Source: Balamuthia mandrillaris (taxonomy: Eukaryota). From it: a DNA stretch of 64,000 bases. Position 1 is the stretch's first letter, and each line of letters starts with the position of its first letter. The stretch covers positions 124,001-188,000 of the forward strand of contig JAVKOQ020000039.1 in the NCBI GenBank assembly GCA_031835245.2, in the 5' to 3' direction. This document shows, in pieces, positions 7,157 to 63,345 of the stretch. The notes under the pieces are model-generated. The model was not told where the DNA came from and did no database searches. It worked only from the letters and a program-made list of their open reading frames with translations. The translations under genes and the position numbers were made by a program.

Positions 7157-8455
7157 GCATAAGGAAAAAAAACCACAAACCTATTGGAGAAAGAACCAGG
7201 CCAGCACAAAGTGCATTCAAAGAGGCCGTAGGCAGAGAAGGCGCCCTCTGCGCAGATGGAGTGGGGTTTAGGGGTGGGAGGCTGAGGCACGTCATCGAAG
7301 AAGCTGTTGTTGGCGACGCTGAATAAGTCGGAGATGTAAGGAGTGGCGGAGAGTGGAGGAGCGGAGATAGAGCTACTGTTGATGTTGGAGGAGGAGAAGA
7401 GGCAGAAGGTAAGGACCTGCGGAGGAATGGAGAAGATGGATTGAATGGGGGGATAGGAGATGAGGGGAGTAGCAAGGTTGGCGCGGAAGAGCAAGCCCGT
7501 CAAAGTGGAGGTGAAGTTGGCGGAAGAAACGGAGGCAGGAGGTTTGACGAGGGAGAGAGCGGCGGTGGTGTTCGGAGTGTTACCGGTGAAGTTGGAGTTG
7601 AGGAGGGAGATGGTGGGTGCTTGCAAGGTGACTTGTTTGCCGCTGCTGAAGAGGCAGTCATCAATTTTAACAGAGTTGTTCTGTATGTAGAGAAAATGTG
7701 AGTAAGAGAGAAGACGAGGGAAGAGTTAAAAAAGAGAAGAGACGAACCGTAGCGATGTTAAAGTATTGATGCTGCGACACTGCCACGTTATTGAGCTCGT
7801 ACTTAGCAAGAGCCACCCCCTTGAACGAGGTAGCCTCTTGCTGGAACACCTTGCCCGACAGCACGCTGTTCTGCAAACTAACCAAGCCTGCCGTCACGCC
7901 TCCTCCCACAACCACGTTAGCCAGGGCCAAGTTATCTCCTTTCACAGCGCTGGTCTTGGGCGAGAGGTTGTCCGTGGCCGCGATGGAGAGGTTCCTCGCC
8001 CAGAGGGAGGCCAACGTAAGGGTAGCGGGCTGCACCACCGGGCCGGTCACCACAGCCAGCTGAGTGATAACAGGGCAGGACTGCATGTCGCTGAAGGAGC
8101 AGGCCTCCGGCCCTTGCAGAGTGACAGGGAGGCCGGCTGGGTGATGAGCGGTGGTGAAGTTGAAGGTCTGCGGGTCCGTGTAGGCTCCCTCTGCCAGGCA
8201 GACCACCGCGTGGGACTCGGTTTGAAAAGCGGGGGCGCTGATGAGGGAGGCGGCGGCGGCGAGGGTCTTGAGGGCTTGCGCGGGGGAGCTGCCGTTGTTC
8301 TTGTCGCTGCCGTGCTGGCCGTCCACGTAGACGTTGCAGGGATCGGCCGCCGCGAGCGCACTGCTGGTGCACTGTTGGAGCACGCAACAGATCAGAGCAA
8401 AGAACGCCACCGCAGAGAGGAAGAGATTGGATCGTCGTCGTGTAGCGAAAGCCAT
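6795..8455 (-). CDS. Type I membrane surface protein, paralog A (signal peptide, beta-helix-like ectodomain, Cys-rich repeats, TM, YxxL tail)
   Basis: Signal peptide, CNVYVDGQHGSDKNNGSSPAQALKTL, CTLCWPGSFS/CTQCEAGS Cys-rich repeats, TM segment, tail RRRHDYSPL*. Confidence 0.75.
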
Positions 8456-8953: not shown

Positions 8954-10527
8954 CTACAAAGGCTGGTATTCCTCCCTCTTCCGGATACGAATAACGTAGA
9001 AGCCGATCAAACCAGCCACGCCCATCAACACCACAAAGCCCAACAGCACCGCCACCACGATGATCACCGTCTTCTTCTTCATGGAATCATCATCGTCCTC
9101 CTCTTTCTGGCAAAGCGTTCTCGCCCCGTTGGCCTCCTGGCCCTTGGGACAAGGGTCGCAGGCGGCGGCGCCTTGCTCGGGCGCCACGGTGTTGACGGGG
9201 CAATCGAAGCACTGCACGGCACCAGCGGAGGCGGCGTACTGGCCGGCGGCGCAAGGCAGGCAGCTCTCCATGCCGGTCTCGTTGGCGAAGGTGCCGGGGG
9301 TGCAGAGCTGGCAGCGGAAGAGGCCGAACCAGGAGACGACGCCCTTGCCGCACTGAGGGGGCTTCACGTTGGGGGCGTGGCTCACGTTGCTCACGTGGAA
9401 CAAGGTGTGGTTGTACTCGGTGTTGGCGAGGGGAGGAGGGAACTCCTCGCGGCTGCTGGGGTTCTTGCCAAAGTAACAGCCCTTGATGAGGGTCTTCTCG
9501 TGCTTGTGCAGCTTGTCGCCGCTGGGGTAGAGGATGAGGGGGGTGGCAAGGTTGTCCTCGAAGCTGAGGCCCTCCAGCTTGGACGCGAAGTTCTTGAACT
9601 CGGGGTAAGGGTGAAGGAAGAGCACCGCGCTGTCGTTGGGCTTGTTGCCGGTGAAGGTGCAGTTGAGGAGGTCCACTCTGGGGCCGTGAGCAGCGAGGGT
9701 CTTACCCTTGATGAAGAAGGCATCTTCTATTTGGATAGCTGTTTCCTGTTTGCTCACTTGTGAGACAACCAACACAAAAGAAAGGAAGGAAGGAAAGAAC
9801 TTACGGAAATGAAGGAAACCAGGTCATGTTCCTCAACGATCGCTTTCTTCAACACTTGCTTGGCGGGCGACATGTCGCTCAGCGTGCTCTGCTTGGCCAC
9901 GGACTTGATGCCCAGCTCCCTGAAGGGGCGAGGGGTCAAGACCAGATCAACCCACTCCACCACCTCCGTGGCGGCAGCTCCCAGCGAGGCCGTCACCGCG
10001 GTGAGGTGCTTGGCTTGGAAGTGGGTGAGGCGCGGCTTCTTGTCGCCTTCGGTTTGGGCGACGGCCAGGTCGCCCACCCAGAGGGTGTCCAGGGTGAGGG
10101 CGGAGGGGTGGGCCGGCTCTCCGGGGTTGATGGAGAGGCTCAGCAGGATGGCGCAGGTCTCTGCGGGGTGGTCGTAGGAGCAAGGGGAGGAGGGGGCGTA
10201 GGTGCGGAGGTGAATAGGGAGCTGCTTCTTGTGGTGCTCCTTCCAGGTCATGTTGAAGTATTGCGGGTCATTGTAGATGCCGGGGGCCAGGCAGACCACG
10301 GCCTCGGCGTGAGGGAACTCCGCGGAGGAGAGGAGCTCGGCGGCGGCGTTCACGGTCTTGAAGGCGGAGGAAGGGGCGGTGCCGTTGTTCTTGTCGTCGC
10401 CGTTCTTGTCGTCGACGTAGAGGTTGCAGTCAGCGGCGGCCGCCACAAGGCTGGCCTTGAAGAGCAAGGCCAGCAGCACCACCGAGAGCAAAGCCAGTGC
10501 GCCACAGTTGCCGGTACCACTTCCCAT
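8954..10527 (-). CDS. Type I membrane surface protein, paralog B
   Basis: Signal peptide, CNLYVDDKNGDDKNNGTAPSSAFKTV, CQLCTPGTF/CLPCAAGQY/CFDCPVNT repeats, TM, tail RKREEYQPL*; one intron near 9760-9803. Confidence 0.8.
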
Positions 10528-13572: not shown

Positions 13573-13645
13573 GCCGGGCTAGCTCAGTCGGTAGAGCGCA
13601 AGACTCTTAATCTTGTGGTCGTGGGTTCGAGCCCCACGCCTGGCG
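13573..13645 (+). tRNA. tRNA-Lys(CUU)
   Basis: 73-nt cloverleaf: acceptor GCCGGGC/GCCTGGC, D-arm GCTCAGTCGGTAGAGC, anticodon arm CAAGA-CTCTTAA-TCTTG, T-loop GTTCGAG; no encoded CCA; followed by a T-run typical of Pol III termination. Confidence 0.97.
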
Positions 13646-14908: not shown

Positions 14909-15229
14909 TGTTCAACCCTTATTTGTCTTTGCAGGTGAATAAATTATCAATTTTCATATTTATAAACACAAAACTTTTACATACAATTAAAACAAAAAGG
15001 ATTATACCATGAATTTTAAATCCTGAGTTATCCACATCAAAGATTATGGATATCTTCAATAGATGAAATCATGTAGAACTTCTTGGTAGTATCCAAGAAT
15101 AAATCCCCCCCGTCGGTTCGAACCCCGTCGGTGACGGTTTTGATTTTCTTTCTCTTTTTTTTTGTTGTGTGCACAATTAGTGCACTAATTGCGCACAAAC
15201 CAGAGTACCCAAAAGAAGAATCGAAAGAA

Positions 15230-20404: not shown

Positions 20405-23400
20405 ATGCAAAGAAGAACGGCAAAGCGGCGGAAAGCTGCCACGGCGGCAGAACAAAAGAATGCCTCCTCGGCGGCGGCATCGTCAGGAAGGCCCGCGAAG
20501 AAGCGGAGGAAGCAAACCTCCTCCACTACTACTACCACCCGAGGTGGCAGCAGAAAGAAAGCCGTTCCGCGCTTTTCCTCTCCCGATGAGCTACGAACGG
20601 AGGAAGACATTAGGAGCTTGGGAGTGTGCGAAGGGATGGAGGACGACCTCCCCTACCGAGAGCTGGACCGTTTCCGCCTGCTGGAGGGCAGCGGCAAGCT
20701 CAGCCCCGGGCTGGAGCGCATGGAGCAGCCTGGGAGGACGCTCTACGCGGAGGGCTGGGCGTCCTCCCCGTTCAGCGAGGACCCTCCGGTTCGCGTGCGT
20801 TTGGGCCGTCTGCTGGAGTGGCACCTGGAATATGGCGGGGAGCCGGGCTCCTGCCCTTTGGTCTGGGTCAAAACGGTGCACGCTAATTACTGCCTGAAGA
20901 GCCCTGACCAGGAGTATGCCGCCCTGTTTCACGAGTCGGTGGTGAAGAAGGCGGCGTTGACGGCCAGGGTCTTGGCCGTGCTTGAGGAAGGGCTTGAGCT
21001 CAGCTATGAGGACGTTCTGGAGAGAGTTTTGCAGCACAGTGTACCATCGCCACCTTCTGCGACCATGACAACCCAAAACGGACACGAAGAAAAGGAAAAA
21101 GAAGAAGAGGAAGAAAAGGAGAAAGCATCACCTTTGGCTAAAGGCAAAGAAAAGGACTGTGATACTACTGCTGGAATGGAAGTTGTTTCAGAGGCACAGC
21201 AGAACAAGAACCAGAAGAAAGTGGAGGAAGTACAGAACGAGATGGCGGAAGGGAGCCAATGGTCAGTAAGTGATGTGGTGAGCAATGCTACATTCATCGA
21301 GGCACAGATAAGGGGCTTTGGGGATGACCTGCTGACCACTTGCCCGTTTATGGTGACTCTGAGAGAGGTCATCATGGCCAACAAGACGAGAAAGCAAGAA
21401 AAGAAAAGTAAACAACTAGAAGAACTACAGCAACAACGAATGGCAACCTCTGTTGAAGCCAAATCGGCTTCTTCCTCCTCCTCGTCTACCTCTTCCTCTT
21501 CTTCCTCTATCTCAGCTTCCACTTCTTCTTTCAACACAGAAGCGGGGCCATCGTCAGCTACCAAAGATGCCTCTCCACAAAGTTCAGACTTGGACGACTT
21601 TGCCCTGGATCCCAGCAAAACAAATAAACGCCGCCGTTCCAAGACCCATTATATCCCAAAGCATAAAACTGTGCCTGAACAAGAAGTCGAACTCATCAAC
21701 GAGAACACGGATGACATGACCAACGGCGGTGACGATGAGGATACCATTCCCACTCGTCTCTTAGAGGATTTTACGGTCTACGATCTGAACGACAAAAGGA
21801 TGGTGCTGATGGATGAGATATGGTCATCCACGCACTCTGACCTGGAGATGTGTGCCTCAGGCTTCGTCACTCCCATACTCAGCGATGAACAGATATTGGA
21901 GCAACAGCAGTTGGATGACGAAGAAGGTGACATCAGCGAGGACATCAGTGAGGAGGACGAAGACGAAGAGGATGAAGCAAAAGAAGACGATAAAGATGAA
22001 GAAATCAAAAAAGAAGAGAGCGATACTGAAGATTTCGTGGTGGAAGACAAGAACAAGAAAGGAGAAGAAAGACACAAGAGGAGAAAGAAGAACAAGAAGA
22101 GACAACGCAATCCAGAGTCCGGTCTGTGGGTCTCTCTGACCACTGTCTTCACATGGGATGTCCAAATCTCGGATGGCTCCATCTGGCTGCGCACCCAATT
22201 CGCATGGTACAAACTAGGCCGCCCCTCTAAAGCTTATTCTCCTCTCTACGAGCCGTTGGTCTATCGCTATCAACTCAGCGCCAGAGTAGGGGCTCTCTTG
22301 CAGAGCAACTTTGCTGCCTCCTACCAATTCATCGTGGAGCAGGTAAGAGAGCCTTACCTCGACTTTCCTGGATTCAGCGAGGAGGACATCCAACATGAGG
22401 CTACGCATATTCTGGAAGAGGTTCGACAGTTGATGCCCGACATTGATCCCTCTCGTCAACCTTTTCTTCAACGTTTGCAGAAGCTTCTTTCTTCTTCAGC
22501 GAACAAAAACAAGTGGAATAAAAGTCATGATACAAGCGTTGTAAGTGGAAGACAAGCAGGCAGACAACGGGCGCAGAACATTCCCACGCGAGGAAGTGCA
22601 AAACGGCTAGAACGAACTCCAGCTACCGTCACACCTTTGATAAAAGAGCTCTCCGTCGGTCTTTTCAACACCATTGTTGAGGTTAAAACCAGCGGGAGCG
22701 ACAACAATCAGTATGTGGGCGGCAAGCTCGGCAAAGAGAAAGAGGATTCAACAGCTCTTCATAGGGATGGAGCCACTGTGAAGCAAAAAGAAGGAAGAGC
22801 AAAATGGAAGGAAGTCACAAGAACGGTCAAATGGACAAAACTTCAACACAAAGGCGATCACACGAACGAGAAAGAGAAGGAGAAAGAAGGAGGTACGAAA
22901 GAGAGTATTAGCATGCGCGTGGAAGAAGAGGACGATGCGTTTTTGGCGCCTTGCAGCCGGTCTGCTTCCAAAAAACGGATATACTATGATGAGGCTTCTG
23001 TGGATGGTGAGATCATTCGTCCTGGTGATGTTGTTTATCTTCGTGCTGATTCTGCTGGCTCCGAGTCTTGGATTGGTCGGGTTATCGCCATGTGGTGTGT
23101 ATTCTTTTCTTTGTCTTGCTCTTTTGCCGTTCCTCTTTTGTCTAAGCGACAAATGCAGGGAAAACAAGCCCACTCGTAGCAAGCTCTTTCACTGCCGTTA
23201 CTTCCGGCGTGGCCACGAGACCATTCTCGGGGAGACTTCAGGCCCTCATGAGCTCTTCCTCACGGATGAGTGTGTGGTCAACCCAATGAGCAGCATCATG
23301 GGCAAATGTAGCGTCACTTTTGTGCCTCCCAACTTCATCACGGATGGGCGCTGGTCCGACGCTAAGCGACGTCAACTCACAAATGAGAACAAGAAAGTGA

Positions 23401-26400
23401 ACGAGAACGACTCCTTCTTTTATCGTTTCTGGTACGATCAGAAGACGGCTTGTTTTGAGGACGTTTCGAAACATGATGTCAGCGCAGCGATGATGGCTAC
23501 CGAACTCCCTCCAAACTATTGTCACGCATGCCATGAGAAGAGCAGAAAGAAGAGTGAACAAATACCTCGCCCTTTTCTTTTTGCCAAGAGAAAGCGACAA
23601 CAACAACCACAGGAGAAAGATAAAGCAAGGATCTATTACGACGGTTTTGCTCAGAATGGACAGAGTTACTCTGTCAATGACTTTGTTTATGTGTTGCCTC
23701 CTGACAAATACATTGTTCGTGGACGCAACTCACCTTGTGTTGCCTCGTACGTGTTTTTTTTGTTCTTGTTCTTGTCCTGCTTCAGAACTAACCTCTTTTT
23801 TCACATTCTATTACTAAAATGACTTTGGCTTTTGCAGGAAATGGTATTCCTGTCCCTACGAGATACACCAAATCGATAAGATATGGCGAAACCAGAGAAG
23901 CAGCCGCTCTGGTGGTGTTCCTGTGGTCTATGTATCGCTGCGGCGACTCTATCGCCTCACCGAACTCAACGAATACTTCAGTGGTCAAAAAGAAGACAAT
24001 GGCAATGGTAATGGTTCTCTCTCTCTCTCTCTCTCCTTCTCATGTCTAACATAGTACAAATAGGACCACAATGGAAGCCAAAAGGAGACCCAAGGGAATT
24101 GCTGTGGTCAAATCACCTGACAACTAGAATGCTCAGCGCCACGTCGCCCTTCATTGAGGGCATCTGCGTCGTGCGCAAGCTCTCCGACATCCAGGAAGAT
24201 CTCAACAATTACATCTTTAAGAGCCCACATACATACTACATGAAGCGAACCTATATTGGAAAACCTTTGTCATCAGATAGTAACAACTTAACAACAAACA
24301 AAAAAGATGGTAAGAAGAATAAGCTGGACGAACTTTTAAGAGCGTTACCTTCTTCTTCAGAGGAGGAAAATGCTATTCGGTACTCGGAGAACAGCAAGCA
24401 CTTGGAGACTGCTTGTGGAAGACCCTGCGATGTGCAAGACATGCTTCATGCCTTCAACGTCGATCCTTCGGAAGCATCACACTTACCGCTTGATCGAATC
24501 GTGAAAGAAGTGGAAAGTTGGACCTCTATGGATGAAGATAGGAGACACCAAAAGAAGAACAAGAAGGAAGGGCCAACCTCTGGGTTGGATAGGATTAAAG
24601 CAAGGATAGAGCCGCTTCGTGCGTTGGATTTGTTTTCAGGATGTGGAGGTTTTACGCAAGGCCTTGAAACCAGCGGCGTTGTCAAGACCTGTTATGCTGT
24701 AGAGTTTATGGACAGTGCTGCGGAAACGTTGCGCCGAAACCATCCGTATGTTTACATTCTTTCATTCTTGTTTTTTGTTTGTCTCCACTTTTCTTTCTCA
24801 CGTTATCTCACCGTTTTGTTTGTATAACAGTGATGTAACAGTGTTAACCGGAGATTGTAACACTCTGTTGCGAGAACGTATCGAAATGGACGATGACGAA
24901 GCCCAAACGACGAAGACGGTGTGCCTTCCACCAAAAGGTGAACTGGATTTCATCTACTGCGGACCACCCTGTCAAGGCTTCAGCGGCATCAACAGGTTCA
25001 AGAAAGCGGATGATGTGTTGAACTCTCTCATTGCCGCTACTCTCAGCTATGTCGACTATTATCGACCACGATACTTTCTTCTTGAGAACGTGCGGGGCAT
25101 GATTTCTTTCAAGCTAGGTTTGTGTCTTCATTCTTCATTCTTCCCTTCCTTCCGTCAATGCCTTTGCTTCCTTTAGCGAAAAGCACAAGATTCTTGTCTA
25201 TTGTGTTCTTTAGCATGCACGGATAGAGCATTTACAGCATATAGCAATCAGAATGGACTTTTACCGAGGCCCATCCGGATAATTAATGCTGTCACATTCT
25301 TCTTCTTCTTCTTCTTTTTCCTTCTTCTTCTTCGTTTTGTCTGTTCGCTAAAACAAAAGGGGAATAGGAGGACAACAGGATAGGCATAGAGTGATAGGCG
25401 GAGTAAAGATGGGCGTCGTCAAGCTGATAGCACGTGTACTCACCGCAATGGACTATCAGGTCCGCTTCACCGTTCTCCAAGCCGGCATGTTTGGCGTCCC
25501 TCAAAGCCGTCGCCGATTCTTTGTTTGGGGTACTTTTTTTTTCCCTTGTTCTTTCTTTCGCTCTGTCTCATCTTCGCATCGTCCGTCCTTGGTCTTCATT
25601 GCAGGCGTTAAACGAACAGACAGATTGCCAACATTCCCTCAACCAACGCATTGCTTTCCAAGCACCGGCTCCCTTACCATCAGTATTCCCACCGATGACA
25701 GCACGGAAGGAGGCAAAGAGATCCGCTACACCTCCATCACCGCACAGGCCGCTCCTCATCCTACCGTCACGGTAGGCGATGCCATTGGAGACCTCCCTGC
25801 CTTTGAGTATGAGGATACGTGGTCTACTCTGTCTGCGGAGGAGCTGGCACAGACGAAGAGAGGCACGGAGCAGCACTGTGTCGGCAGCGAGAGCATAAAG
25901 TACTTGTCCCCTCCTCTCTCTGAGTATCAGAAGAGGTTGCGGCAGTCTTGTCTCTCCGGCGAAGATAAAGGCCAAAGCAAAGACATTGGTTTGTTCTTTC
26001 TCCTCTCTCCTCTCTCCTCTCGTTTTCTTCTTTCCCTGCTGATGACAACGACAACAAAAAAGGTGGAATACTTCGCAACCACATGACAAGATCCTTTAAC
26101 AGCCTAAACGTGGCGCGCATTTGCAACATACCCAAACGCCCCGGTGCGGACCACCGCGACCTGCCCGAGCCTCTGCGCCCTTGGTGCCTCAGCCATCCCG
26201 ACTCTGCTGCCTCCCGCCACCACAACTGGGCAGGCCTCTATGGTCGCCTGGACTGGGAGGGCACGTTCAAGACGGCCTTGACGGACATCTCTCCGATGGG
26301 CAAGCAAGGCACCGTCCTTCATCCCAACCAGAACCGAGTTATCACGTTGAGAGAGTGCGCCAGGGCGCAAGGCTTTCCCGATACGTTTGTCTTCTTCTCG

Positions 26401-26751
26401 CGAAGGGGCGATATCAAGGAGATGCATCGACAGGTAGGCAATGCGGTGCCACCGCCGTTGGGAGCGGCGTTGGCAGAGAGGCTTGCTGTTGCAGTTTGTG
26501 GAGGGTTTTATTGCAAGCTCGTACAGAGCCGTCCGGTTAGGAGAGGAGCGAAGAAGGAGAAAGAAGAGGAAGAAGTAGAAGAGGAAGAAGAGGAAGAAGA
26601 ATGGAGAGGCTCGCAAGTGGGAAGAAAGGAGCAGGAAATGGAAGAGATGGTGGAAGCAATGGAAATGGGTGATTATCTCTATTCGCAGCCGTTCAACAAG
26701 GAAGAAGAGGAAGAGGAAGAGGAAGAGGGAGAGGAAGATCCACAGACATGA
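20405..26751 (+). CDS. DNMT1: DNA (cytosine-5)-methyltransferase, DNMT1/MET1 type, multi-exon
   Basis: Two RFTS-like repeats (VWVKTVHANYCLKSP; IWLRTQFAWYKLGRPSKAY), BAH domains (IRPGDVVYL...RGHETILGETSGPHELFLTDEC; YSVNDFVYV), catalytic motifs LDLFSGCGG, GPPCQGFS, ENV, PQSRRR, RECARAQGFPD, RQVGNAVPP. Confidence 0.93.
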
Positions 26752-29471: not shown

Positions 29472-33194
<3,723 letters not shown>

Positions 33195-33486
33195 GCTATT
33201 CTTTGAAGAAATGGACTTCGTTTTGTTTTTTTTAATTATTATTTTTAAAATAATGTAAAAGAAAAAGAAAAAATTAACAAAAAAAATAATAATAAAACTT
33301 GTCGACAAATGTTTTGTGCACAAGCTTTGCATCTCTTGATAACCAAAGCTGACGTCTGCTTGGAAGTTTCGTATACCTACGAGGTTGAGCGGGCAAGCCC
33401 GCTAGATAAACAATTCAAAAAAAAACAAAACTAGCTTGAAGTGGTGTCGAACCGGGAACATAAGGAGGAAGAGACGAAAGCAGTAG

Positions 33487-33614
33487 AAGAGTGTCTTCCA
33501 CGCTCAATGCCTGCACCATTAGTTCAGAGACAAATAGGAAATACATGAGGAGGTAGAGCCTCTCTCTCTCTCTCTGAACTAATAGTGCAAACATTGAGCA
33601 TGGAAGACACTCTT
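33487..33614 (-). ncRNA. Candidate hairpin RNA (pre-miRNA-like): 44-bp stem, 40-nt loop
   Basis: Arms 33487-33530 and 33571-33614 are reverse complements except at 4 positions, each a G-U wobble when read from the minus strand. Confidence 0.5.
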
Positions 33615-33967
33615 AACAACCATTTTCCAGGTCATCTTCAGGTAAAGGAGTGCAGGGCTGGCCAACAGCGTGGGCCAATGCGATGCAAGCAAGGGATCAC
33701 ACTGGCCCCTCTAGGCTTTACTTACAAAACACTCGGACAGTACCACCTTTAAGAAACTTGCTGGTATATCTTTTTGTTTGCTTCCCTTCTTGTTCTGATT
33801 GCTGCTTCACCTTCTCCTTCTTGAGCTCCATTAGCTCTTAGCACGTCGTCTTGTGGTTAGCTCGGCCATTTGGTTTGTTCTTACTCTTCTTCCTTGCCTC
33901 TCTTATTCTCTCTCTCTCTCTCTCGCCTTGGTGAAAAACAAAAGAGCAGATATTACACAGCGAAGAT

Positions 33968-35216
33968 TTAATGTACAGAAGAGAAGGCGGAAGAAGTTGG
34001 AGAAAAGGGAGAGGCAGCAGCAGGAGAAAGATGCGACGAAGGAATAAAGTTGGTGAAGGTAGAAGCTGGAGTAAAGGAGAAGGAGGGAGAAGAAGAACAG
34101 GGTGGTGGGTTGGAAAAGGAGAAGAATGACGAACCAGGAGGCTGTGAGAACGGAGTTGTTTCTCTGATCGTTGGAGCTGTACATAAAGGAGAAGTTGATG
34201 AAGAAGTAGATGGAAATGACGTAGAAGCAAAAGTGGGGGAGAAGGGTTGTGAGAAGGAAGATGGGGACGAGAATGGGCCAGGCTGAAATGGGCTTGGCGC
34301 ACCAAAAACAGGTTGTGAACATGAAGCAAACCGCTCTTGTTCTTCTTCCTCTTCTTCCTCCTCCTCCTCCTCCTCCTCTACGGCGTTTCTATGCACACGT
34401 CCCCCGCTATACATACCGTCCCCTTCTTCCTCCTCTTCTTCTTCGAGTTCTTCTGCCTTTGCAGAATACATCCACTCTTTTTCTTTTCCCTTATCCTTGC
34501 TTTCCATCGCTATCACTCTACACCGGTCCGCATCACATCCGTCTTCCTCTTCCTCTTCTTCATTCTCTTCTTCATCTACCAGCTCTACAATAGGAGAAAG
34601 CTTGGCGCCACCAACAGGTTGAATCCAGTCTAAGCCTCCATCAGACTTCAACTCATCGTCAGTGTTTTCATCATCAGTATCGTAGTCTTCATCATCCTCG
34701 GAGATGCCATCCAAGTCATAATAATCAACGTCTCTTCGGCGGTGTGCCTTCCATAGCAGCTTCATGCGCTCTTTTCGAGATAGACTTGCGAATGGGTCTT
34801 CTGTCACTCTAGTGGAAGAAGGAAGCATGATTATGGCTTTTGACAAGCTGAACCACGAGAATGGGTTAGAGGAAGGAGAAACGAGGAAGAAGAGGGAGAG
34901 GGCGAAAGAGGAAAGGAGAAAAGATGTACTCTTCGGGTTTGCAGCCAAAAGGATTAGAGAACTTGGAGGAGTGAAGCGCTTGAAGAAGTTCTGCTGGCGC
35001 TGGAGAAGCCGATAGAAGCCCAGGTTGAAGCAACAAAAGGCTTGAGTTGGGCCGATACAAGGTCAACGCTCTGCACGAATTGTTCGCTGACGTTGCTGCA
35101 CCGGGACACGACATATCTTCTGCCTCCGACAGCCTAATTTTTGCGTTTTCAACTTCAGCATACCGACAAGCGACCAGAGAGAGAACGAAAGACGAGAAAG
35201 AGATAAGGGACGAGGG

Positions 35217-60879: not shown

Positions 60880-61045
60880 ACAAAACTAACTAAAAGAAAG
60901 AGAAAAGGAGGCCCTTCAATATAATAAAAGAAAGAAGCTTAGTGATATGGCAGAAGGCAATTGACCAATGTTTTTGATATCAACAGAAAGAAAAGAAAGG
61001 GAAAGAAGCAAAAGAGCTAATATGTTGAGAGTAATTATCAACATC
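60880..61045. repeat. Diverged ~165-bp dispersed repeat, copy 1 (copy 2 at about 62650-62815)
   Basis: Shared blocks aactaactaaaagaaagaga, aagaagc.tagtgat.tggca, agcaaaaga.ctaatatgttgagagtaatt.tcaaca. Confidence 0.75.
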
Positions 61046-61959
61046 CTTAGTTTGCTTCTGAGCTATAAATACTCTCTTAAGAATAAAAAGAAGATATTAA
61101 ATCATAATACCCTAAGCTTCATTTATAGTATAGAAGATGTTTTCTCTCTTTATCATTTTGTTTCCCTTTGCTTTTTATGATGAAGAAGGCAAAATCAGCT
61201 CAATCCACCAAAATTACCAACAATGTAGCATAGTGTCCTATATTTTGCTAGGTTATAGATAAATAGTAAAATGATAAATGCTTCTCAAATAGATACCCCC
61301 ATGCCTATTCTCAGTACAATGCAATGTTAGTTGATTTGATAGTTAATAGAAAAGAAGAAAAAGTAGCAGTTATTAGTATAAACTTATTTAAATAAGGTGA
61401 AAGAAAATGATATTCTAGTAAAATTGTGAAAAAGAAAGTCACTATTTAGTGGAAATACAGTTGAAGTATTACTCAAAGTTGTAGTGTATATGAATTACTT
61501 GTGAGTGTAATGTTGAAAAAGATGACAGGGAAGGAAACACTTGTGGAAAAAGAGGTGATATAGCCTTTGAAAAAAGGGTTTAGAGTAGAGCTACCAAGTG
61601 GCTTTATGAGAGGAAAGTAAAACAACAAAGTTGTTGATTCATTTTCCAAAGCCTATTTATGATGAAGAAAACAGTACAAATGCATTTCTCCAAACCTAGG
61701 ATGAGTAGAATATTATGAATAGAAAAAAAGAAATAATAGTCATGTTGAAAGTAGAACAACTGTTTAATTTGTTGATAGTAAATATTAATAATAAAAAAAA
61801 CACATGATAAGGCTAGTAGGGAAACAACCTAATGGATACCAACTTGATGGACATAAAGAAAAAACCTTTAATAGAAGGAAAAAAAGAGATATATCTCTTT
61901 GAAGTCCAACCTTGTGATCAAGATCAGCACAACAGAAAGTTAGCAGAGTTATGAACTGA

Positions 61960-63345
61960 AATTGTGATTTATATATCTATTGTTTTTCCTGATTTATTAG
62001 TGGTGATTTTTTTCATACACACAAAAAAAAGAATTTTTTTTTGGAGCTTATTTTTTTTTACCAACACATTAACAACAAGCACATGTCTTATCTACAAAGA
62101 CAGCAACCAAGCAAAAGACATCAAACACAATGCACATATCAAACACAATATAAATGCTAAACACAATACACACACCAAACACAATGCACACAACACTTAC
62201 ATCAAACAGAAAAAGCACCTTGAAAATAAAAGGAAATGGTGTAAGATGAAGGAAAGAGAACTGCAAAAGAATTGGACACCTCATAAGTATGTATGTGTTG
62301 ATGAAGGAATGAGTCTATGGAAAGGAAGAAAGAAAGAAAGAAGTTTGAGTCCTTGTGAAAGGAAAGCTCCACTTGAATGGGATCAAACTGCATTTTCTTG
62401 CAAATCAAACAACATATATTTATAACTTTTGGACTTATCAAGGATACCAGTCAGCAACAAAATGGATTGTTATAACTTTCATTGAGGTGCTTCCTGATAA
62501 AGGAAAAGGATACACAGTTAGCATGGACTCCTATTATAGGAGTGTTAGAAAGGGCAAATAACACAAATGAATGAAGTCAAAACGTATTACTCAAAAAGAG
62601 GAAACATGAAAACAAAGGGTGTAAAGAGGAAAAGGTGTGATATGAACAAAACTAAACTAACTAACTAAAAGAAAGAGAGAAGAAAGCAACAAAATAAAAG
62701 GAAGAAGCCTAGTGATGTGGCAATAGGTGATTAGTATATGTCACAGATGTCAACATAAAGGAAAAGAAAGGAAAGGAGCAAAAGAACTAATATGTTGAGA
62801 GTAATTCTCAACAACAGACTCTCAATAGCAAGAGTGCTAAGAAAGATGAAAATGTCCTTTGTTATGGGCTGTAAGACAGACAAACCTTTTTCACAACAGC
62901 ATGGATTGCTTGCTGCAACTGATGGCTCAATAGTATGATGCTCTTCTTTTTGCAAGCTAATGGCCCTTTGTTGGTGAGATAAGAAGGTCCTTAATCTTTT
63001 CACAACTCCACACCTTGCTTTCTCTTGTACTCACCAAGGCCTATGTCATCTACAAAATGACCAACCAAAATAATGAAAAAGCAGCAAAAACACACAAGAG
63101 GTTTCTTTGCCAGCTTGTGCATACCTTGCTGGAAAAAGCAGGAGGCACAAAGAGGAAAAAGAGGAAAAGAAGTGATGCCAACCATCAAGCAGGTAAAGGG
63201 TTCCACTTTCCAGAGAGGATAGGAAAGTGAGGAACATGCCCCTATTGCAAAGAAGTGGCTCAGTGCACCAGCCAATACACACTTAACTGCCAAATAATCT
63301 TTGTTGCATGCTCTACTCCTGAAACCCCATAGGTGCACAAAAAAG
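61960..63345 (+). mobile_element. Degenerate piggyBac-like transposase relic
   Basis: Fragments in collinear order: VCVDEGMSLWKGR, MKGKLHLNGIKL, GYTVSMDSYY, W*DKKVLNLFTT, KAYVIYK...THKRFLCQLVHTLL, HFPE..K*GTCPYC Cys-rich tail; frameshifts, stops and an internal deletion. Confidence 0.8.

Follow-up and report, generated by a model that had tools for sequence, protein, structure and literature searches.

A 44-bp fold-back between convergent genes of Balamuthia mandrillaris and its relation to a broken, coding-derived remnant

Does a 44-bp fold-back between two convergent genes of Balamuthia mandrillaris give rise to a regulatory RNA, or is it a scar left by rearrangement? The fold-back lies near the middle of the window, the whole 64,000-nucleotide stretch of contig JAVKOQ020000039.1 analyzed here, and its two strands pair unequally well. 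An initial annotation had read this inequality as selection on a minus-strand RNA, a candidate microRNA precursor or hairpin RNA. On balance we lean towards a plainer account, in which the hairpin would be a local inverted copy of a 44-base piece within the broken remnant of a likely multi-copy coding element, a passive by-product that yields no regulatory RNA.

The fold-back and its setting

The arms occupy 33487-33530 and 33571-33614 (44 bp each, with a 40-nt spacer), and their alignment bears out the four same-direction differences first reported for them, each a C in arm 1 against a T in the reverse complement of arm 2 (33501/33600, 33510/33591, 33511/33590 and 33517/33584). The strand asymmetry was confirmed when both strands were folded: the minus-strand RNA pairs all 44 rungs, four of them as G-U (-91.7 kcal/mol, z -12.2; none of 200 shuffles did as well), and the plus-strand RNA carries four mismatches (-75.2 kcal/mol, z -9.7). 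The hairpin ranks first among the 72 inverted-repeat pairs in the window whose arms lie at most 400 nt apart, and simple repeats account for most of the other 24 close pairs listed. Within the 64 kb the arm sequence occurs at these two places and at no further one, and a pattern search for it in metagenome and viral contigs found nothing. No Rfam family reached its gathering threshold on the hairpin; the best score was 38.9 bits against 104 (mir-4504), and the matches are of shape only. The features of the hairpin and its neighbors are as follows.

33192..33194, plus strand: stop codon of the left neighbor, a DEAH-box helicase gene (by eye; Pfam OB_NTP_bind on a late exon, E 2e-14), presumably DHX35-like
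33487..33530, minus strand: arm 1, forming the 3' arm if RNA is made from the minus strand; probable inverted copy, antisense to the parent-family message, with G at the four wobble sites
33531..33570: spacer (loop), 40 nt, which includes part of a short CT/GA run; no relative aligned
33571..33614, minus strand: arm 2, forming the 5' arm if RNA is made from the minus strand; over 33614-33580, its first 34-35 nt, it reads as sense-strand sequence of a coding family
33968..33970, minus strand: stop codon of the right neighbor, an acidic low-complexity protein of no known family

The two stop codons uphold the placement between convergent genes and leave a gap of 773 bp around the hairpin; the mean intergenic gap in Balamuthia is ~664 bp (10.1101/2025.02.25.640156).

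Several other features of the window are recorded here in their own right. An eRF3 exon is 100% identical over 144 residues to a Balamuthia mandrillaris protein, a tRNA gene lies at 13573-13645 on the plus strand (Rfam, 69 bits), and a 30-bp near-perfect palindrome (93%) lies at 15168-15197. Tandem paralogous genes at 8153-8353 and 10246-10443 (70% DNA identity over 204 bp) encode predicted surface proteins with Cys-rich repeats and a hydrophobic C-terminal stretch. A DNMT1-like cytosine methyltransferase gene with RFD and methylase domains spans 20405-26750 on the plus strand; one late exon is matched best, at identities reaching 67%, by early-diverging fungi, the best 120 matches listed include no named amoebozoan, and a lateral or fungal-type origin of this gene is possible on these matches. 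A decayed transposase piece (Pfam DDE_Tnp_1_7, E 0.0026, below the cut-off), which we take to be piggyBac-like, lies in an AT-rich stretch (61955-62425 and 60884-62813) that also has a 161-bp direct repeat (60884-61043 and 62659-62813, 79.5%).

Relatives of the arms in other DNA

Of the 19 sequencing runs listed, none of them a small-RNA library, four were aligned, against 33300-33880 only: a DNA run (X12) from a study other than that of the best-matching run, a run of a second organism (X14) and two RNA runs (X16 and X17). Six X12 contigs match pieces of 33316-33831, four at 90-95% identity, two below 90% and none at 95% or above, so that the run yielded no contig near-identical to the hairpin region, although contig filters can hide some. 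The second organism gave no matching contig on 33300-33880, and the same filters keep this from being proof of absence.

The X12 contigs, numbered as records, cover different parts of the region. Record 1 matches 33316-33364 and 33786-33831 with 33364 joined to 33786 and the 421 bp between them skipped, which is a different internal deletion. Records 2 and 3 match 33374-33408, record 6 matches 33754-33790, and record 5 matches 33580-33664 on the minus strand at a depth of 2.7 (contig depth was not taken as copy number). The match of record 4, placed on arm 1 with three differences, covers the arm's first 34 nt; of the X12 records, one can be fitted at two places. By eye, the upstream letters of record 4 agree with the minus-strand flank of arm 2 at 25 of 30 positions with one gap, and record 5 has the same gap, at 33623. 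The window differs from these relatives at 3 of 34 and 9 of 85 positions.

The kind of difference is informative. All six sites at which records 4 and 5 depart from 33615-33645 are synonymous third positions of one minus-strand frame (a common phase is expected by chance at 0.004). Record 4 alone contributes five of five (chance 0.012, by hand), the sixth site resting on record 5 only, and its downstream letters stay open in the family frame for ten codons (by eye). Because the six sites that differ just upstream of arm 2 are all synonymous third positions, each arm comes, over its first 34-35 nt, from a protein-coding family. Balamuthia has a diploid-like genome, and its strains are ~90% alike in protein (10.1101/2025.02.25.640156). 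Records 1, 4 and 5 represent three versions, more than two alleles can yield, and thus at least two loci; the protein-coding element is likely multi-copy, as far as these contigs tell. The description of the hairpin as non-repetitive consequently needs qualification: it is single-copy in the window, but pieces of 33316-33831 recur in the X12 contigs in at least three different forms, ~90% alike, and two of these include the first 34-35 nt of the arm.

The window copy of this element is broken, with a frameshift at 33623-33626 and stops at 33718-33720, 33697-33699 and 33579-33581; both arms have a stop at arm positions 34-36 in the family frame. The remnant can be laid out as follows.

33316-33364 and 33374-33408, strand not settled: downstream family fragments (records 1, 2 and 3), with a small GC palindrome at 33389-33402
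33615..33664, minus strand: flank upstream of arm 2, derived from coding sequence; the changes that set relatives apart are synonymous and fall at third positions, and the window copy is frameshifted in the run 33623-33626
33665..33753, minus strand: probable continuation of the remnant, interrupted in frame by stops at 33697-33699 and 33718-33720; GTAAGT, resembling a donor, at 33725-33720; homology presumed, no contig piece aligned
33754..33831, minus strand: upstream family fragment with a short ORF from an ATG at 33831; relatives in X12 (records 1 and 6) and low-level transcripts in X16 and X17

Protein searches gave the family no name. Pfam found no family in any of five short readings of the remnant, and HMMER found no match at E 0.001 to the 39-residue ORF at 33721-33837, both weak negatives on short queries. 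A word-indexed search with a 45-residue read-through (X at two breaks), likewise a short query, returned one candidate and no match at E 10 in a collection that includes Balamuthia proteins, and an exact look-up of six window ORFs found none. Together with its fragmentary state, this absence weakly suggests that the parent family is a transposon ORF.

Some smaller features touch the remnant. A plus-strand reading of 33309-33360 resembles the family reading of the arm by eye (a few shared residues, same spacing), and this stretch may be a second, older family fragment in the opposite orientation. Two closely spaced 10-bp perfect palindromes (TTGTCGACAA and TTGTGCACAA, within 33290-33325) form a small minus-strand stem near the left end of the remnant. 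The small palindrome at 33389-33402 was not found in viral contigs, and a Helitron or IS-like end there was considered and dropped; the shared piece also stops beside an acceptor-like CTAG. Within the hairpin itself, 33522-33585 on the plus strand and 33579-33513 on the minus strand each show intron-like signals, namely an initial GT, a CTAAT that resembles a branch site and a terminal AG, 64-67 nt apart, a spacing close to the size of the neighboring introns. These signals are present on both strands because the repeat is inverted, and the RNA reads contain no splice joint across them; an intron across the loop was dropped. The GTAAGT that had been noted near 33724 on the minus strand is indeed there, starting at 33725 and donor-like by sequence, and no splice joint using it was seen in the X16 or X17 reads.

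How the fold-back may have formed

Records 4 and 5 both leave the arm at position 34-35, and the last 9-10 nt, common to both window arms, are absent from both of these relatives. Since the two arms share letters that the relatives lack, the duplication would have followed the cutting of the reading frame. We envision a scenario in which a family copy, probably a transposon ORF, decayed in the 773-bp intergenic gap, after which a fold-back or template-switch event would have copied 44 bp in inverted orientation across the break, and three or four ordinary C/T changes then happened to fall so that the minus strand keeps its pairing through G-U. The Balamuthia genome is replete with fragmented transposable elements (10.1101/2025.02.25.640156).

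The initial annotation had offered a MITE as its alternative, and an element with 44-bp terminal inverted repeats inserted at this locus would indeed place inverted arms around a short spacer in a stretch that is repeat-derived. We nevertheless consider such an insertion very improbable. Coding-type homology continues past arm 2 into 33615-33664, and because it runs on as coding sequence the end of the arm is not the end of an element. No target-site duplication was seen by eye beside 33487 or 33614. The annotation had also proposed that dispersed copies would betray a MITE: relatives of one arm do exist, but the window holds a single two-armed copy, and no second arm or strand-changing joint was aligned in the remaining 199 and 315 letters of records 4 and 5, the two arm-bearing X12 contigs. 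The stops and frameshift, with no second arm aligned for these two relatives, argue for a local inverted duplication in a gene or transposon remnant over a MITE.

The arms might instead have separate parents, two family members brought together in opposite orientation, or a paralog might have converted one of them, in which case the C/T differences would be old synonymous variation and the G-U pairs a side effect. The divergence between the arms, 4 of 44, is similar to that between the window and its relatives, and three of the four arm differences are synonymous in the family frame. However, at least three of four synonymous sites are expected in 115 of 330 random sets of C sites (0.35), and we dropped synonymy of the arm differences as evidence on that ground. 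The shared last 9-10 nt, found in neither relative, point rather to one common source, and we judge a two-member origin unlikely in the extreme, if marginally less so than an inserted MITE.

A fold-back chimera of the assembly is the least credible source of all. None of the independent runs aligned spans the hairpin, as an artefact would have it, but the arms differ at four sites and a 40-nt spacer separates them. Read chimeras produce near-identical arms.

Is the fold-back a hairpin RNA?

The reading that competes most seriously with a passive inverted copy is a young hairpin RNA or miRNA-like locus that silences its parent family, which we regard as possible but doubtful. Under this mechanism a minus-strand transcript would fold into the fully paired 44-bp stem, which a Dicer-like enzyme would process into ~21-nt duplexes, one or, as 44 bp allow, two. 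The 3' arm, antisense over 34-35 nt, would then guide silencing of the parent-family mRNA; with G at the four sites it would pair with either C or U, whichever a family member carries, and C-to-U changes would let the sense arm drift without loss of the stem. A more specific version is that of a newborn hpRNA locus, in which the antisense arm would keep its match to expressed members, every change in the sense arm would have left the stem paired through G-U, and the siRNAs or miRNA produced would act on the parent family; we hold it more tentatively still. The placements of the contigs suggest that, at some of the four sites, relatives have the C of arm 1. A guide arm under conservation beside a passenger arm that drifts would account for this, but a C-to-T change on one strand would do so equally well.

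Several features speak for such a hairpin. The minus-strand stem is fully paired, and its 3' arm is antisense to a family with transcribed relatives. A stable single hairpin of precursor size, used as a criterion for miRNA precursors in PMC11014262, is what was found here (128 nt, 44-bp stem, z -12.2), and the length is near the 75-125 nt of most amoebozoan pre-miRNAs, which in Acanthamoeba and other Amoebozoa are mostly intergenic and turn over fast (PMC11014262). The evidence for Dicer and Argonaute comes from Acanthamoeba, which has two of each alongside miRNAs (PMC11014262), and the review table in the available part of PMC13315211 covers Naegleria fowleri and Acanthamoeba castellanii only. 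Against a functional hairpin RNA also stand the lack of an Rfam family at threshold, a target match limited to 34-35 nt, and the X12 and X14 results, with no near-identical contig in the one and nothing in the other, subject to filters that can hide contigs. Because the arm is a fragment of a coding family, the hairpin is best described as an inverted-duplication hairpin with an obvious possible target and not as a stand-alone pre-miRNA; the stem and size of the proposed candidate stand, its independence from the decayed copy around it does not.

Transcription was assessed in X16 and X17, with 12,895,792 records of each (~3 and ~5 in 100 of the runs). No read aligned at 95% or above on 33300-33880, the interval covered, and depth was zero over 33420-33739. 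Six reads of X16 and one of X17 aligned, all partial and 90-95% alike, on flanking fragments (at 33752-33790 in the upstream one) and none on the arm segment. Relatives of the flanks are transcribed at a low level, and the hairpin copy is not seen in the same RNA. For the proposed minus-strand transcription, two RNA runs lacking a positive control thus gave no hairpin read. The strain behind X16 and X17 may not carry the hairpin copy, and RNA-seq underrepresents the duplex arms of genuine hpRNAs as well (PMC10317233).

The strand bias had been the main argument for selection. Each transition gives G-U on one strand or the other, and four of them therefore all fall on one strand with a chance of 0.125, or 0.25 when the neighboring CC/TT changes at 33510-33511 are counted once; at 60% transitions the chance of same-strand G-U is 0.016-0.054. 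All four changes are of one class, which among transitions is expected once in 64. The gap in folding energy between the strands, -15.8 kcal/mol, is rare under a random model and favors the hairpin RNA: it was reached by 0 of 400 random four-change hairpins at 60% transitions and 2 of 400 at 80%, the model leaving out the CC/TT linkage. But the bias rests on three or four events. Decay of methylated CpG was considered as its cause and rejected: CpG occurs at one of the four difference sites and Acanthamoeba methylates almost only at CG (PMC12344493), so that this process fails for the set. Altogether the G-U bias, at a chance of 0.02-0.25, is modestly unusual, which is suggestive and not strong evidence of selection. 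The fold and the bias are as first described, while the selection drawn from them is only a possibility.

Known small-RNA systems offer instructive parallels. As in Drosophila hpRNAs, the arms derive from a gene or transposon fragment with one arm antisense. Those hpRNAs arise as inverted gene or transposon fragments among other repeat scraps, de novo examples being hp58, hp88 and hp-ODox2 of D. simulans, and the antisense arm matches a multi-copy family in both cases (PMC10317233). They are, however, recognized by siRNAs that depend on Dcr-2, by primary transcripts with a cap and a poly(A) tail, and by the de-repression of targets, whereas the Balamuthia hairpin is known from sequence, and its 44-bp arms compare with ~200 bp of target homology for hp-ODox1 (PMC10317233). 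Young plant miRNA genes born from inverted duplication of coding genes or rearranged transposons share the same inferred route of origin, a near-perfect stem and progenitor homology that extends past the stem; unlike them, the Balamuthia hairpin is known from its sequence and not from a mature miRNA/miRNA*, its progenitor is unnamed and its host is an amoeba (10.1101/2024.07.25.605110). Amoebozoan miRNA loci resemble it in being intergenic, as a single locus here within the window, and in precursor size (128 nt here), and those called young also have a fully paired stem; they are called from replicated small-RNA stacks, whereas the present likeness is one of shape and setting only (PMC11014262). 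Balamuthia is not among the species named in the available text of that paper. Our literature search found no description of a Balamuthia miRNA or hairpin RNA, nor do the available parts of PMC13315211, PMC10471605 and PMC11761746 contain one.

If the inverted copy is passive, as we are inclined to believe, such a scar is nothing special in a genome where transposon fragments abound, and it is a cautionary case: three or four changes that yield a G-U strand bias speak only weakly for selection. Should it be active, it would point to endogenous RNA silencing at work in this amoeba, a human pathogen for which the available part of a 2026 review reports no tools to alter gene expression (PMC13315211). 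It would then be the first endogenous small-RNA locus described for Balamuthia mandrillaris in the literature searched, would extend to Amoebozoa the inverted-duplication route by which small-RNA genes are born in plants and flies, and would provide a concrete case of the birth of an amoebozoan miRNA-like gene, a question that PMC11014262, in its available text, leaves open.
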